The notes beneath the pieces are model-generated. The model worked only from the letters and a program-made list of their open reading frames with translations, had not been told where the DNA came from and searched no databases. A stretch of DNA of 64,000 bases, taken from NCBI GenBank assembly GCA_964016885.1, contig OZ024756.1, forward strand, positions 8,122,001 through 8,186,000, written 5' to 3'. Of the stretch, positions 35,136 to 64,000 are shown one piece after another. Origin of the DNA: Eledone cirrhosa. Taxonomy: Eukaryota. The position numbers were made by a program, and so were the translations under genes. How positions within the stretch are numbered: the stretch's first letter is position 1; each line of letters opens with the position of its first letter.

Positions 35136-36330
35136 TAGGAACGACGGCTGAGCTCAAGCCGTTTCGACGGCTAATTCTGGACTAAATGAACATTTTTATC
35201 CTGGTATATGAATAGCCGAGCTTCTCAGGGGGTAATTCCATATATGGTAAAAGTGATTGTCACAAGGATTGGTCAAAAGTTTGTTGTTGAGACACATAAT
35301 TCTATCATGGCAATTTGTGGAGGGAAGGGGTAGTTGAACCTGCCAGTAGAAGAAAGAGGGAGAGGGGGTGGAGGAAACCCAGTCGTGCGTTGATAGTGCC
35401 AACTACAGCTGGGCAGGAGGTCAAAAAATGTTCATATACTTCGTACGAGCATTTATGTAGTTTGCACTAGAATTTTTGTATCGTGGCGGCACCCTTAGAG
35501 ATAGTATTAGTATTCTTTTTCGGGATTCTGAATTATTATTTCGTATTAGTTTGTTTTTTTTGCACTGGGTGGTTGCTGGCCTTGTGACTGGGGTAGAAAC
35601 CTTTATTTCGTACTGGTCTCGGGACTCTGAATTATTATTTCGTGGTAGTTTCTTTAGTATTTTGGCCCCCCACTTGTTGACCCGTCACCGTAAGATATAC
35701 TCGGTTGATTACTTATACCTCTTAAAAGGGTCTCATTATAATTCCGTCCCACCTAGTAAACCTTTCTTTAGTCTAGCAGTACCAGTGAGAGACTTGATAG
35801 CTGTCCTTAGGTTATAGTAACCAGAATTTGTTTTTTTTTACATTTAATTGTTTTTTAACATTCTTGGTATTTTTCTATATATTTACCCCATATTGTTTTA
35901 CTTATTGTTTCGACTTCCTCCCCCTCCCCCTCCCTAGTATACTTCTTTGACCTCCTGCCCAGCTGTAGTTGGCACTATCAACGCACGACTGGGTTTCCTC
36001 CACCCCCTCTCCCTCTTTCTTCTACTGGCAAGTTCAGCTACCCCTTCCCTCCACAAATTACCATGATAGAATTATGTGTCTCAACAACAAACTTTTGACC
36101 AATCCTTGTGACAATCACTTTTACCATATATGGAATTACCCCCTGAGAAGCTCGGCTATTCATATACCAGGATAAAAATGTTCATTTAGTCCGGAATTAG
36201 CCGTCGAAACGGATTGAGCTCAACCGTCGGGGTCCTACTCGTTCCTATTACCCACTCTACTACCCTAAGTATTGAGTACTTTGGTGCGTTATGGTCCACC
36301 TGGTTCCTTACCACATTTCCTTCGTTATAT
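35136..36330. mobile_element. Penelope-like pseudo-LTR element (family A) with ~290-bp inverted arms, flanked by TA-rich simple repeats
   Basis: 35136-35425 is the reverse complement of 35946-36248 (near-identical ORFs 35196- and 35969+). The 3' end ATTACCCACTCTACTACC...CCTTCGTTATATA recurs at ~53521 and ~62718. Confidence 0.7.
36138..36233 (+). ncRNA. Type I hammerhead-like ribozyme with variant core (CUGAGAA)
   Basis: Stem I ACCCC/GGGGT, core CTGAGAA, stem II CGGCTA..TAGCCG, GAAA, near-palindromic stem III ACGGATTGAGCTCAACCGT, cleavage triplet GTC. An inverted copy at 35143-35233 lacks the 3' strand of stem I. Confidence 0.55.
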
Positions 36331-36406
36331 AATATATATATGCATATATATAATATATATATATATTTACTTGTCTCACTCGCTTTACGCGTTTCACTTG
36401 TCCCAA

Positions 36407-39091
36407 TAGCAGTATTAGTTGTAGATGTTATCGCCACTTTAGCAGGGTGGTAGAATCAGTGGTCGTTAGTTGCCAGTGTGGTAAGTGATAGTATCCTCGT
36501 TGGATTATCTTGTTGACATAGACGTGAGGGAAGGTCCCTCGATCTATTTACCATCTATTTACAATATTCCTTTCGTCAGGTCGCCAATTCCAGCAGCATG
36601 GATTAAAGATGTCATGGAGACACGAGTAACATAACAACGACTCCAACCGCAGCAACCAGAGATGAAATGTTTGTTTATTTATATGGTTGAAGTTACAGAT
36701 ACAAAGAGGTTACCAAATGGAATGTGCCATTGCGCCGTTAAGCCGGCGAGGCTAGTGGTGCAATATCTCACTGTTACATTATGCGTGTTGCTGGCTCGAA
36801 GTTTCTGGTACAAGCTAGAGATTCTTCAAATCTTCGCGGGGAATTTCTTCCTCAGGGCGCGTAGGGATACATCCTCTTCTACTGGCGCTGATTGGCTGAA
36901 CTGAACCAAATCACGCACAGAGAATGTATGTGAGCCTGCGGAATGTAGGTCACTACATCACCTCCAACCAGATTTTCAGCCGAAAATCGATAACGAAGAA
37001 ACCAAGGACCCACATATTATTGAATCAGCAAGAAAAATGCTGAAAGAGCACATCAGTGAAAAAATAATTGAGTAGAAGGTTGCATGCAAGAATAAAAAAT
37101 GAGGCGCTACGGGCCGTGTTGAGCCGCTGTGTCGAATGACCAGTTGTTTTGTTGTTTATACGTGACCGCCAAAGGTCTAACAAAAAACGGATAAAGTCTG
37201 ACATGGGCGAGGTTGCTGTTCTTGCATTAAATGTTAATGGTAAGCGTTGTACCAGTAGCTGTGAACGAAGCTATTATGGTAGTTTACCAGTGCTGGCGAG
37301 AAAATGATGGCTCCCAGATGTATTGTCGAATGTGCTGTGGAGCCAGGAAAAAATGGCTGGTTGCTTTGTAAAGAACAAAAGGCAAGTTTAATCTGTAGGT
37401 GAGTTGCAGTGTAAATTCCATAATTCGGGCGAATCCACAGAAGTGGCCGAAATGCTAACAAGTCCAGTTCAATTTGTTGCTTTCCCAGCGAGTCGGGCAA
37501 AAACAACAAGACGGATGGCCGTCATGGACGATCAGTGTGCAACGAGATGCGAAGCTGTTTGAGTTCAGCTGCAATGTATTCTCGTGTTGCGGTGCCTGTT
37601 TGAATCCAGTGGATTAAGCTCTGTGAGCTGCTAGCATGTGACAGCATCTCAACCAGGTGAAAAGGGACTCGCAGAATATTACGTTTGAAGAACATATACC
37701 AAGAACAACATGTTGGTGTGTGATAAAAAAAATGTGTGCATATGCAGGCATGTAAAACAGCAAAGAATGTGAATTAACAAAAACCATGAGCAAGCAAATA
37801 GCAAAAGAGCACAAAACAAGTAAATGCATTCTACAAAGAAATATGTGAATGTAACAAACTGATAATTCAAAGTCAATCTAGGGGAGCAGAGAAATTGCTC
37901 AATAAGTTCAAAGTTTTTCAAAGTCAAATAGTTCACACATCACCAGTGTACAGACACTAGTTCTATCTGAAAACTGAAAAAGAAGTTTGTTAATGCCGTT
38001 AGGGGTTAGCTGTATGGTGTTTTTGTGAGATTTCGTGGCCATTTTACCGTCCCGAAGGTTTTGTTGCTTATTGTTAAAGCAAAGTCAAAGAATCTTCTGT
38101 AGAGTAGGAGTCACCAAATATGGCAGTCACGTCTGACGCCATAATGGTGAGAAACTACTGTCTCAATTTCTCGCGTCCCTGTGGTAACGAGACAGAAGGT
38201 ATGGTGGTTGCGTCGGTAAAGTTACAAGCCGTTTTGAAATTTCCGATGTGTGGTGGTTGGCGTCGGTAAGGTTATGAAGCTGCCACTCACTGTTCCCTGT
38301 ATTGGTCAGTGGTTAAACAACGCTGTCGCTGCTGCTGTCATTGTTGTTGTCAAGCGTAGCCATGACATGTCGGTAGCCATCTTGAAATTTTTTCGTGGCG
38401 AAAAAGTTTTTGAAATACTGCTAATTTTTCAAAAATCTTAAAAGGAATATTCTGGATTTTCGCAAGTTGCGACGTGGCAATAAAAGTTAAACTGAATGAA
38501 TAAGAAGGGCTGCGTGATATTCTTACGTCGGTCACCACTTTAGCAGTATTAGTTGTAGATGTTATCGCCACTTTAGCAGGGTGGTAGAATCAGTGGTCGT
38601 TAGTTGCCAGTGTGGTAAGTGATAGTATCCTCGTTGGATTATCTTGTTGACATAGACGTGAGGGAAGGTCCCTCGATCTATTTACCATCTATTTACAATA
38701 TTCCTTTCGTCAGGTCGCCAATTCCAACAGCATGGATTAAAGATGTCATGGAGACACGAGTAACATAACAACGACTCCAACCGCAGCAACCAGAGATGAA
38801 ATGTTTGTTTATGTATATGGTTGAAGTTACAGATACAAAGAGGTTACCAAATGGAATGTGCCATTGCGCCGTTAAGCCGGCGAGGCTAGTGGTGCAATAT
38901 CTCACTGTTACATTATGCGTGTTGCTGGCTCGAAGTTTCTGGTACAAGCTAGAGATTCTTCAAATCTTCGCGGGGAATTTCTTCCTCAGGGCGCGTAGGG
39001 ATACAACCTCTTCTACTGGCGCTGATTGGCTGAACTGAGCCAAATCACGCACAGAGAATGTATGTGAGCCCGCGGAATGTAGGTCACTACA
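36407..39091 (-). mobile_element. Internally deleted LTR retrotransposon (Gypsy-like remnant) with two ~550-bp LTRs
   Basis: Near-identical direct repeats 36407-36957 and 38541-39091. On the minus strand each begins TGTAGTGAC. A PBS-like TGGTGACCGACGT follows the 5' LTR and a purine-rich GGTTGGAGGTGA precedes the 3' LTR. The ~1.6-kb interior has no intact ORF. Confidence 0.7.
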
Positions 39092-39120
39092 CATATATAT
39101 AATATATATATATATATTTA

Positions 39121-39845
39121 CTTGTCTCACTCGCTTTACGCGTTTCACTTGTCCCAATAGCTTATTTTAGTTATTTCTCGCACCAACCTGAGGTATCTGA
39201 TTTTTAATGCGATGAAATACCAATGATGGTTGGCAAAATCACTGATGAGGGACTAATTTTATAATATGTAATCCATGTGCAACCACGCAGTATTCTTCTT
39301 CCCCTTGTTTTTCATATATATTTACCTAAACTGCGATTATCTGTTTCTCTCTTTCTCTCTTACTGCTCCTCCGTTCTCTCTGTTTCTCTTACCTTCTTTC
39401 ACCCTCTCTGTCAGTTACACTATTTCTCTCGACTGACCTCTTCCTCGCACTTCCACTCACTCACTCTCTGTTTCTCCCCTTCTCACTTCCTCCCGTTCGC
39501 TACTAGTGGGGTTCCTTCTTCTCACACCGCACTCACGGCGTACGGTCTGCTTCTCTGACCGCTCATGAAATTCACCCAGCTTATGCTGATTGGATAACTA
39601 TCATGCTGTTTTCCAACCTTCGGTTTGCTTTTCCTTCTGTCGAATATTTGTCTCACTCGCTTTACGCGTTTCACTTGTCCCAATAGCTTATTTTAGTTAT
39701 TGCTCGCACCAACCTGAGGTATCTGATTTTTAATGCGATGAAATACCAATGATGGTTGGCAAAATCACTGATGAGGGACTAATTTTATAATATGTAATCC
39801 ATGTGCAACCATGCAGTATTCTTCTTCCCCTTGTTTTTCATATAT
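39121..39845. repeat. ~200-bp direct repeats (39121-39320 and 39648-39845) around a ~330-bp spacer; partial-tandem, pseudo-LTR-like element
   Basis: Near-identical copies are visible directly. A related 3' portion recurs at ~62431-62540 between TA-rich tracts. Confidence 0.7.
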
Positions 39846-63742: not shown

Positions 63743-63808
63743 TATTTTATTATATATATTTCAAGGGCGACCAAGGTAAATTATGGTGCGCTTTCATCAG
63801 ATAAAATA
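63743..63808 (-). ncRNA. Type I hammerhead ribozyme
   Basis: TATTTTAT-CTGATGA-AAGCGCACCA...TGGTCGCCCTT-GAAA-TATATA-TA-ATAAAATA. Confidence 0.78.
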
Positions 63809-63898
63809 CAGATTTGTTTTATAACTATCTAGCGAATTTCAACCGTTGAGGTTGTCTTTTTTCCGGGTATGTCAATATTTATTTATAAAACAAATCTG

Positions 63899-63964
63899 TA
63901 TTTTATCTGATGAAAGCGCACCATAATTTACCTTGGTCGCCCTTGAAATATATATAATAAAATA
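63899..63964 (+). ncRNA. Type I hammerhead ribozyme (inverted partner)
   Basis: Same sequence on the + strand: 8-bp stem I, palindromic stem III ATATATAT. Confidence 0.78.
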
Positions 63965-64000
63965 ATTAAGGTTTTATAAATATAGTTTCCATTTATTAAT

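Follow-up and report, generated by a model that had tools for sequence, protein, structure and literature searches.

Hammerhead-bearing hairpin repeats beside (TA)n in Eledone cirrhosa as probable insertion products of Penelope-like elements

We analyzed a stretch of 64,000 nucleotides (nt) from Eledone cirrhosa (NCBI GenBank assembly GCA_964016885.1, contig OZ024756.1, positions 8,122,001 to 8,186,000 of the forward strand; hereafter the window, numbered from its first letter), in which an initial annotation had noticed four families of fold-back DNA, A to D, with paired opposite-strand hammerhead ribozyme (HHR) motifs. The analysis confirmed that hairpin repeats with hammerheads beside (TA)n are real. 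Each hairpin very probably pairs two copies of a single hammerhead-bearing terminal segment, shortened to different extents and placed head to head, both deposited at (TA)n by the enzyme of a Penelope-like element (PLE). Most likely, the elements are ordinary PLE insertion products of an already described kind; they depart from it in having longer tails than described and, in A, a lineage whose ribozyme core carries a C3·A8 mismatch.

All four families consist of inverted pairs joined 5' to 5', with the ribozymes facing outward. Their arms, correctly described as long inverted repeats, measured 287, 252, 152 and 121 nt in A, B, C and D, respectively, and the summed arm lengths reach ~2.8 kb within 30 kb of this repeat-rich window. 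The elements are asymmetric: one copy halts at a fixed point, and the other extends by a one-sided tail of 78 nt in A (three copies and reads), 95 nt in C, ~50 nt in B and 66 nt in a fifth fold-back, E; the position of the D tail falls outside the window. The limits first assigned to the elements omitted these tails, with which A runs to ~36326, B to ~48865 and C from 53761. Of the outer ends measured in A1-A3, B, C1, C2 and D, 13 of 13 lay at most 10 nt from a (TA)4+ tract, in agreement with the proposed TA-rich microsatellite neighborhood, compared to 3.9% of background positions and none of 14 ends of a short interspersed element (SINE)-like family (nearest 123 nt); because the positions of the outer ends were chosen by eye and in part from the tract itself, this comparison is somewhat circular. 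At the sequence level, C and D have 17 identical nt in common across stem I and core (E 1.7e-4) and so are not wholly unrelated, in correction of the initial description. Two blocks recur in both B and E (40143-40350), and sequence comparison found no other pair among A-D alike.

Scanning the 64-kb window with a type I descriptor (CUGANGA, stem II, GAAA, stem III, UH and a stem I of at least 4 bp) returned seven complete hammerhead folds, all beyond 33.6 kb, and no match inside the tandem array at 1-33600. Block-wise dinucleotide shuffles (n=300) yielded a mean of 0.017 folds and never more than one. Counted as independent sequences, the seven reduce to four (B, C, D and G), which still exceeds every shuffle. 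Type I core and stems I-III are all present in B, the minus-strand copies of C, D and G, with a stem III of palindromic CUAG in B, UGCGCA in C and UAUAUA in D. The plus-strand copies of C (54069, 54576) have the core, stem II and stem III, and failed the descriptor owing to a mismatch in stem I. Adding these two and the two hammerheads of A brings the count to 11 (seven complete, four partial or variant), matching the earlier estimate of about ten motifs in 30 kb. The hammerheads do not stand out by the folding energies of their monomers (z of -2.5 for B, +0.5 for A, +0.4 for C, -1.3 for D and +0.5 for G). The B hammerhead (48405-48512, minus strand) has an interrupted stem I of ~24 bp, recovered by the folding program, which is unusual for a minimal PLE hammerhead.

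Family A is represented by three copies in the window, which have a common outer point and an ~80-nt tail and differ in where they fold back: their arms span 287, 52 and 17 nt, their spacers 514, 0 and 2 nt, and two of the three lack the ribozyme core. Of 18 listed sites that vary within the family, the two A1 arms agree at 12; at five of the other six, it is the left arm that matches the majority, pointing to one source template followed by private changes. Of the seven arm differences (35943-36229), five are changes private to the arm with the tail, including three G-to-A substitutions. In the left hammerhead of A1, the 3' strand of stem I is gone through a 12-nt deletion; this loss begins right after the predicted GUC cut, between two TCG words (35134-35142), and may stem either from deletion at microhomology or from a jump of the reverse transcriptase at the cut site.

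Complementarily, public reads were examined by searching the stretch 35429-36330 against four runs: X1, a contig run with 16,390 matching records that may be the window's own sample; X5, which carries another species label; X6; and X12, which consists of raw reads. Depth over the tail exceeded that over the ribozyme core 31-fold in X1, 26-fold in X5 and 29-fold in X12 (relative figures), implying that ~3-4% of tail-bearing A copies reach the core. A has two fixed 3' ends: 2985 reads of X12 exit at 36248 into (TA)n, and another 1264 do so at 36315, where a variant end precedes (TA)n. Moreover, five of 15 listed joints (the best 15 of 18) switch to the opposite strand, at five different place pairs. 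Piles of X12 read ends at 35534, 36059, 36134, 36137 and 36195 were rejected as a signal, as they sit on AATT words, that is, library cut sites; a further pile at 36184 lies one base off such a word.

The window also holds a coding PLE, whose two copies are joined head to head at 41645, the same joint as in the hairpins. Reverse transcriptase (RT), CX2-5CxxC linker and C-terminal GIY-YIG endonuclease are all present in 40350-42470, an order that defines the Neptune/Nematis type (PMC8557442, in its account of PLE domains), so that domain order and linker suggest an element of this type. Pfam assigned no family to the two RT pieces, which were identified through homologs instead; the closest named protein is from Octopus vulgaris (64% identical). 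A decayed hammerhead follows ~200 nt behind the GIY-YIG domain. Together with this element, the data support the Penelope-like origin, hammerhead folds and microsatellite bias put forward at the outset. Aligning the RT region gave 13 related loci, three of which (L006, L011 and L013) were excluded because the match stopped short of the C-terminus or less than 150 nt of 3' DNA was available. A minimal hammerhead lies 90-124 nt behind the protein match in three of the ten usable loci (shuffle control, n=500: mean 0.004, maximum 1), a count for which the descriptor was fixed after the sequences had been viewed; a fourth locus, L007, passes a different descriptor. None of the related loci shares the non-coding DNA of A-D. 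Direct repeats flank the open reading frame (ORF) in L003 (1-123, 3319-3441) and L004 (1-936, 5118-6053, including a minisatellite), and inverted repeats do so in L010 (903-1095, 2916-3090).

Table 1. Features of the window, in window coordinates
Feature	Position	Strand	Remarks
A copy 1 (A1), inverted short-end arm	35134..35428	-	hammerhead without 12 nt directly behind GUC site
A1 spacer (extra 5' part of longer copy)	35429..35942	+	SINE-like fragment 35562-35606, short internal repeats
A1 forward arm to fixed short 3' end 36248	35943..36248	+	
A type I hammerhead fold	36138..36233	+	stem I ACCCC/GGGGU, core CUGAGAA, predicted cut after 36228
A one-sided tail	36249..36326	+	~78 nt, then (TA)n
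A1 arms	35142-35428/35943-36229		280/287 matches
A copy 2 (A2)	53419..53600	+	perfect 104-nt palindrome centered on AATT, plus A tail; hammerhead 3' half only
A copy 3 (A3)	62684..62797	+	17-nt arms plus A tail; without hammerhead core
B inverted copy	48244..48530	-	minimal hammerhead core 48478, stem III CUAG, cut 48448, long extended stem I
B 35-nt stub	48531..48565	-	matches tail end of fold-back E (40313-40348)
B forward copy	48565..48865	+	hammerhead core 48569, cut 48599; TA-rich internal segment; ~50-nt one-sided end common to E
B arms	48230-48482/48565-48819		246/252 matches
C unit 1	53761..54168	-	95-nt tail 53761-53857; intact hammerhead core 53948, cut 53894
C unit 1, inverted copy	core 54069	+	stem I mismatch
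C unit 2	54268..54675	-	+507 nt; 99.5% identical over 616 nt including arm differences
C arms	53849-54000/54017-54168		145/152 matches; repeated at +507
D fold-back	63707..64000	.	cores 63800(-), 63907(+); stem I as in C; right end beyond window
D arms	63707-63827/63880-64000		119/121 matches; cut by window end
E fold-back	40143..40350	+	67-nt arms, 66-nt one-sided extension, no hammerhead; related to B
F small fold-back	46009..46199	.	46-nt arms, 40/46; GAAA-stem III-UC halves, no intact core
G single stub, not folded back	39986..40120	-	complete hammerhead core 40111; between (TA)n and (TG)n
H single stub	34594..34712	+	decayed hammerhead: CUGAUGA 34599, GGAA for GAAA; ends at (TA)n
Coding PLE, left copy, decayed	40350..41644	-	RT core, thumb, CX4CxxC linker
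Coding PLE, right copy	41647..42470	+	linker, GIY-YIG endonuclease, 3' region with decayed hammerhead core 42348
Complete hammerhead folds	40111(-), 48478(-), 48569(+), 53948(-), 54455(-), 63800(-), 63907(+)		descriptor scan

Overall, the features common to these elements are a head-to-head geometry, two fixed 3' ends per family ~50-95 nt apart, and variable 5' ends and joints. Copies truncated at the 5' end, with an inverted copy adjoining there, were found, the truncation gradient having been measured for A alone. Most likely, the hairpin is a by-product made at each insertion rather than an inherited unit, because the fold-back points of A vary, the tail outnumbers the core in depth, further joints occur in the reads and the coding PLE shows the same joint. 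The initial annotation had taken the shared fold-back design as the mark of a new class, which does not hold up given the varying joints of A, the absence of the core from most A copies and the coding PLE that folds back likewise. Its notion of non-coding elements survives as a possibility for the templates of A and B, but not for the fold-back as an inherited design.

A plausible route is offered by an Anolis PLE, for which both strands of an AT-rich target are cut and extended in vitro from two internal start sites whose offset equals the tail (PMC11167929). By extension from that study, the GIY-YIG endonuclease would nick both strands of (TA)n, and both 3' ends would prime reverse transcription, beginning at two RNA start sites whose offset gives the tail. 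The two cDNAs would then grow toward each other, both stopping early, and their ends would be joined, sometimes, we infer, via a self-complementary word such as the AATT at the center of A2. The outcome would be head-to-head arms, a tail on one side and a spacer as long as the two copies differ in length. As templates, autonomous elements may have supplied their long untranslated ends; alternatively, non-coding derivatives may have been mobilized in trans, which is more likely for A and possible for B/E.

Consistent with a non-coding template, no PLE coding remnant was found in the 714 nt upstream of the A core, neither as an ORF with RT and GIY-YIG nor by tblastn with 17 PLE proteins; B-D have less than 100 nt of upstream DNA. 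The same tblastn search detected no remnant anywhere in A-D and gave three weak matches elsewhere (E 0.15-0.9). As the corresponding distance is 90-200 nt in the coding elements described above, and the 714 nt also take in a SINE-like piece and variable internal repeats, A is probably a non-coding passenger. Speaking against this, rotifer Pen1 elements are described as carrying a captured spacer of 0.9-1.5 kb ahead of their end repeat (PMC3846280). Pieces of B and E (48483-48565, 48809-48865 and 40143-40350) can be ordered into an ORF-less, retrozyme-like unit of ~415 nt with one hammerhead, which could equally be explained by a partial tandem made at insertion.

Several observations weigh against twin insertion by a PLE enzyme as the origin of all these hairpins. 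The read evidence concerns A alone, in four runs, of which X12 comes from a restriction-site library, and contig depths, when summed, do not measure copy number; among the five strand-switch joints, three are carried by 2-3 read starts and two by one, so they may be library chimeras. Seven of the ten usable coding relatives fail the hammerhead descriptor. Within the window, A-D share no DNA with the 3' region of the coding element; an autonomous parent of A, B, C or D was not found, and a 30-nt pattern from A was unmatched in JGI metagenomes. Rfam listed no hammerhead, twister or other ribozyme model among its matches (the best 150 of 177 rows of a whole-window run, which was the only run to cover C), giving in their place only sub-threshold miRNA-like hairpins. 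Target-site duplications are unreadable within (TA)n. Finally, tails of ~50-95 nt exceed the 30-40 nt in print for endonuclease-bearing (EN+) PLEs.

Among alternative explanations, the same PLE origin could be combined with a hairpin made by self-priming, or snap-back, of one strand, as proposed for rotifer Penelope elements; we regard this as unlikely, though worth serious consideration. Hairpin loops require at least three bases, and the zero-base loop of A2 and the two-base loop of A3 are too tight for priming in cis. The AATT palindrome of A2 with its zero-base loop fits joining in trans better than snap-back. Snap-back would also leave the fixed short end at 36248 in need of a second start site, such as that mapped in vitro where both target strands are extended (PMC11167929). 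What it does account for is the derivation of both arms from one source template, and palindromes at head-to-head joints have been read as self-priming on an antisense template (PMC3846280, in its treatment of such joints).

We give little credence to the proposal of the initial annotation, a class of non-coding fold-backs that are transcribed, cut by their hammerheads and reinserted as whole hairpins. In its favor, C is repeated entire, with its arm differences and with two same-strand hammerheads 507 nt apart; A, with no coding remnant in 714 nt, and the ~415-nt ORF-less B/E unit that we piece together point the same way. The C pair, however, is adjacent and 99.5% identical including the (TA)n, as a local duplication would be; the second unit is a later local duplication or an assembly duplicate. 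Whole-hairpin reinsertion is further at odds with the variable joints and truncation gradient of A, with the single stubs G and H and the hammerhead-less fold-back E nearby, and with the predicted pairing of the ribozyme within hairpin RNA. In whole-element folds, 84 of 86, 31 of 31, 54 of 55 and 50 of 50 ribozyme bases pair with the earlier arm; since the antisense arm would be transcribed first in read-through RNA, the paired hammerheads are predicted to be silent. One transcript holds only one of the two in sense, so both cannot work in it, and with the predicted pairing they are unlikely to act as a device.

Still less probable are fold-back DNA transposons or miniature inverted-repeat transposable elements (MITEs), or repair palindromes at fragile (TA)n carrying hammerhead-like words by chance: long inverted arms beside (TA)n, containing ~100 nt of TA-rich sequence in B, would suit them, but the copies always lie head to head relative to the ribozyme strand, show one-sided tails and a 5' truncation gradient, and have folds far above shuffles beside (TA)n ends that the SINE-like family lacks. 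For A, the read profile largely refutes this explanation, and a MITE or fold-back transposon, as a fixed-length unit with symmetric fixed terminal repeats, was rejected on account of the one-sided tails and variable arms. An assembly artifact from fold-back reads or collapsed repeats, suggested by the near-perfect C duplication and the perfect A2 palindrome, can practically be dismissed, as arms differ by 2-8% and both 3' ends, together with joints that switch strand, recur in raw reads that another study produced under the same species label.

Twin insertion by a PLE enzyme also agrees with much that has been described. Metazoan PLE pseudo-long terminal repeats (pseudo-LTRs) are reported to carry dual minimal HHRs that lie on opposite strands within ~100-700 bp of each other (Cervera & de la Pena 2014, PMC4209133). 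As in that account, the folds here are of type I with a short or palindromic stem III (CUAG, UGCGCA, UAUAUA), the U3-A8 covariant appears among copies of A, and one genome holds many sequence-unrelated families with opposite-strand pairs; unlike the HHRs described there, stems I and II are longer in B, C and D, and a mismatched C3·A8 is widespread in A. The inverted truncated copy at the 5' end, the tail at one end and the (TA)n bias resemble EN+ PLEs, and the coding element has the CX2-5CxxC linker of Neptune/Nematis (Craig et al. 2021, PMC8557442, as far as its descriptions of these features go); palindromes at the joint are likewise described by Arkhipova et al. 2013 (PMC3846280). Unlike in those EN+ PLEs, both copies are so short in A-D that they retain no ORF. 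Poseidon PAc of Anolis (Frangieh et al. 2024, PMC11167929) similarly has two fixed 3' ends whose offset equals the tail, AT-rich targets and a hammerhead upstream of the start sites. It belongs to a different clade, however, with a hammerhead that reaches into the beginning of the ORF and precedes the start sites by ~90 nt, whereas in A, C and D only 20-46 nt separate the predicted cut from the short end.

Animal non-LTR retrozymes are also non-coding, bear a type I hammerhead and derive from PLE ends (Cervera & de la Pena 2020, PMC7229834, in its description of these elements; Li, Clavereau & Pollet 2026, preprint 10.64898/2026.07.22.740005), and the 507-nt dimer of C and perhaps the ~415-nt unit of B/E recall them. 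In contrast to the head-to-tail arrays giving circular RNA that are described for retrozymes, the elements of the window are head-to-head pairs with variable truncation. A non-LTR retrozyme was rejected as a candidate: same-strand tandem hammerheads occur in C only, each inside a hairpin, and are lacking in A, B and D. Non-coding PLE derivatives as such are thus in print, according to the descriptions in both sources. PLEs are abundant and recently active in O. vulgaris, in a report whose main text is silent on ribozymes (PMC13282606). Our literature search found no study of hammerhead fold-backs or hammerhead PLEs in octopus; the supplements of PMC8557442, PMC4209133 and PMC13282606 may list these families.

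The core of A deserves separate attention. In the window copy, C3 at 36143 stands opposite A8, leaving a mismatched C3·A8. U3 accounts for 52% of X1 depth, 59% of X5 depth and 17% of X12 reads, and is present in the one X6 contig (1/1). All three A>G sites of X5 are among the rows shown, position 8 not being one of them, and across 36077-36210 a single letter separates the window from one contig, whose depth is 22; together, these indicate that C3·A8 is not private to the window copy. G8 was not among the best 40 of 195 variant rows, and X1 and X12 may hide it. A U3-A8 core also occurs in L005, a relative of the coding element, 103 nt behind the ORF, and this covariant is reported from Schistosoma PLEs (PMC4209133, in its section on them). 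In PAc, C3G or G8C breaks the 3-8 pair and abolishes cleavage, and such hammerhead mutants still insert in vitro (PMC11167929). By analogy, the C3·A8 core is likely an impaired ribozyme that still spread.

The remainder of the window comprises the tandem array at 1-33.6 kb (39/43-nt spacing on a 21-nt unit), microsatellites and retroelement debris. Just behind the A1 tail lies an LTR-type element (36407-39091) with 551-nt direct repeats 99% alike and little coding remnant, flanked by a duplicated 70-nt segment (36343-36410, 39092-39161). A short repeat at 39119-39324, 39645-39850 and 62430-62567 contains CUGAUGA and ends at (TA)n, with no GAAA stem behind, and may represent an additional family of PLE stubs; small palindromes devoid of hammerhead words occur at 62122-62167, 43732-43768 and 60795-60832. 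The SINE-like family, which served as the (TA)n-adjacency control and contributed one fragment to the A spacer, has seven copies (42743-42939, 49571-49771, 57655-57836, 58301-58494, 60452-60549, 60844-60983 and 61921-62032). Decayed long interspersed element (LINE) fragments at 46400-47760, 50400-53400 and 54860-56620 end in (GAT)n followed by (TA)n, with a LINE RT match at 51731-52093 (Pfam RVT_1, E 3.7e-05). An open frame of 293 codons (59172-60053) has no Pfam match above threshold; its middle may be a Helitron-type fragment, which it resembles. Minisatellites lie at 56996-57322 (period 63, 5.2 copies) and 61259-61762 (period 23, 21.9 copies).

Octopus is reported to have an exceptional share of loci forming local, near-perfect double-stranded RNA (dsRNA) and the strongest hyper-editing signal (PMC5625713). 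The passages of that report on dsRNA sources explain the dsRNA of a frog by a palindromic repeat, state no such source for octopus and describe Penelope as heavily edited in a lizard. Hairpins such as those described here could feed octopus dsRNA editing. In a broader and rather doubtful reading, A would be a non-coding PLE passenger whose mismatched C3·A8 lineage spread beside U3-A8 under two or more species labels. This would show, as an experiment of nature, that PLEs can move in vivo without hammerhead cleavage. Twin PLE stubs would, in the same reading, be the unexplained source of the exceptional local dsRNA and adenosine-to-inosine hyper-editing of octopus (PMC5625713).

Together, these elements offer a dense, clean example of the twin-insertion footprint of PLEs, in the form of stubs that annotation is liable to mistake for MITEs or for hairpins of miRNA type. 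The C3·A8 lineage, if truly ribozyme-dead and nevertheless amplified, bears on the purpose of PLE hammerheads. If transcribed, the hairpins would be ready-made ADAR and Dicer substrates in the most hyper-edited animal group reported.

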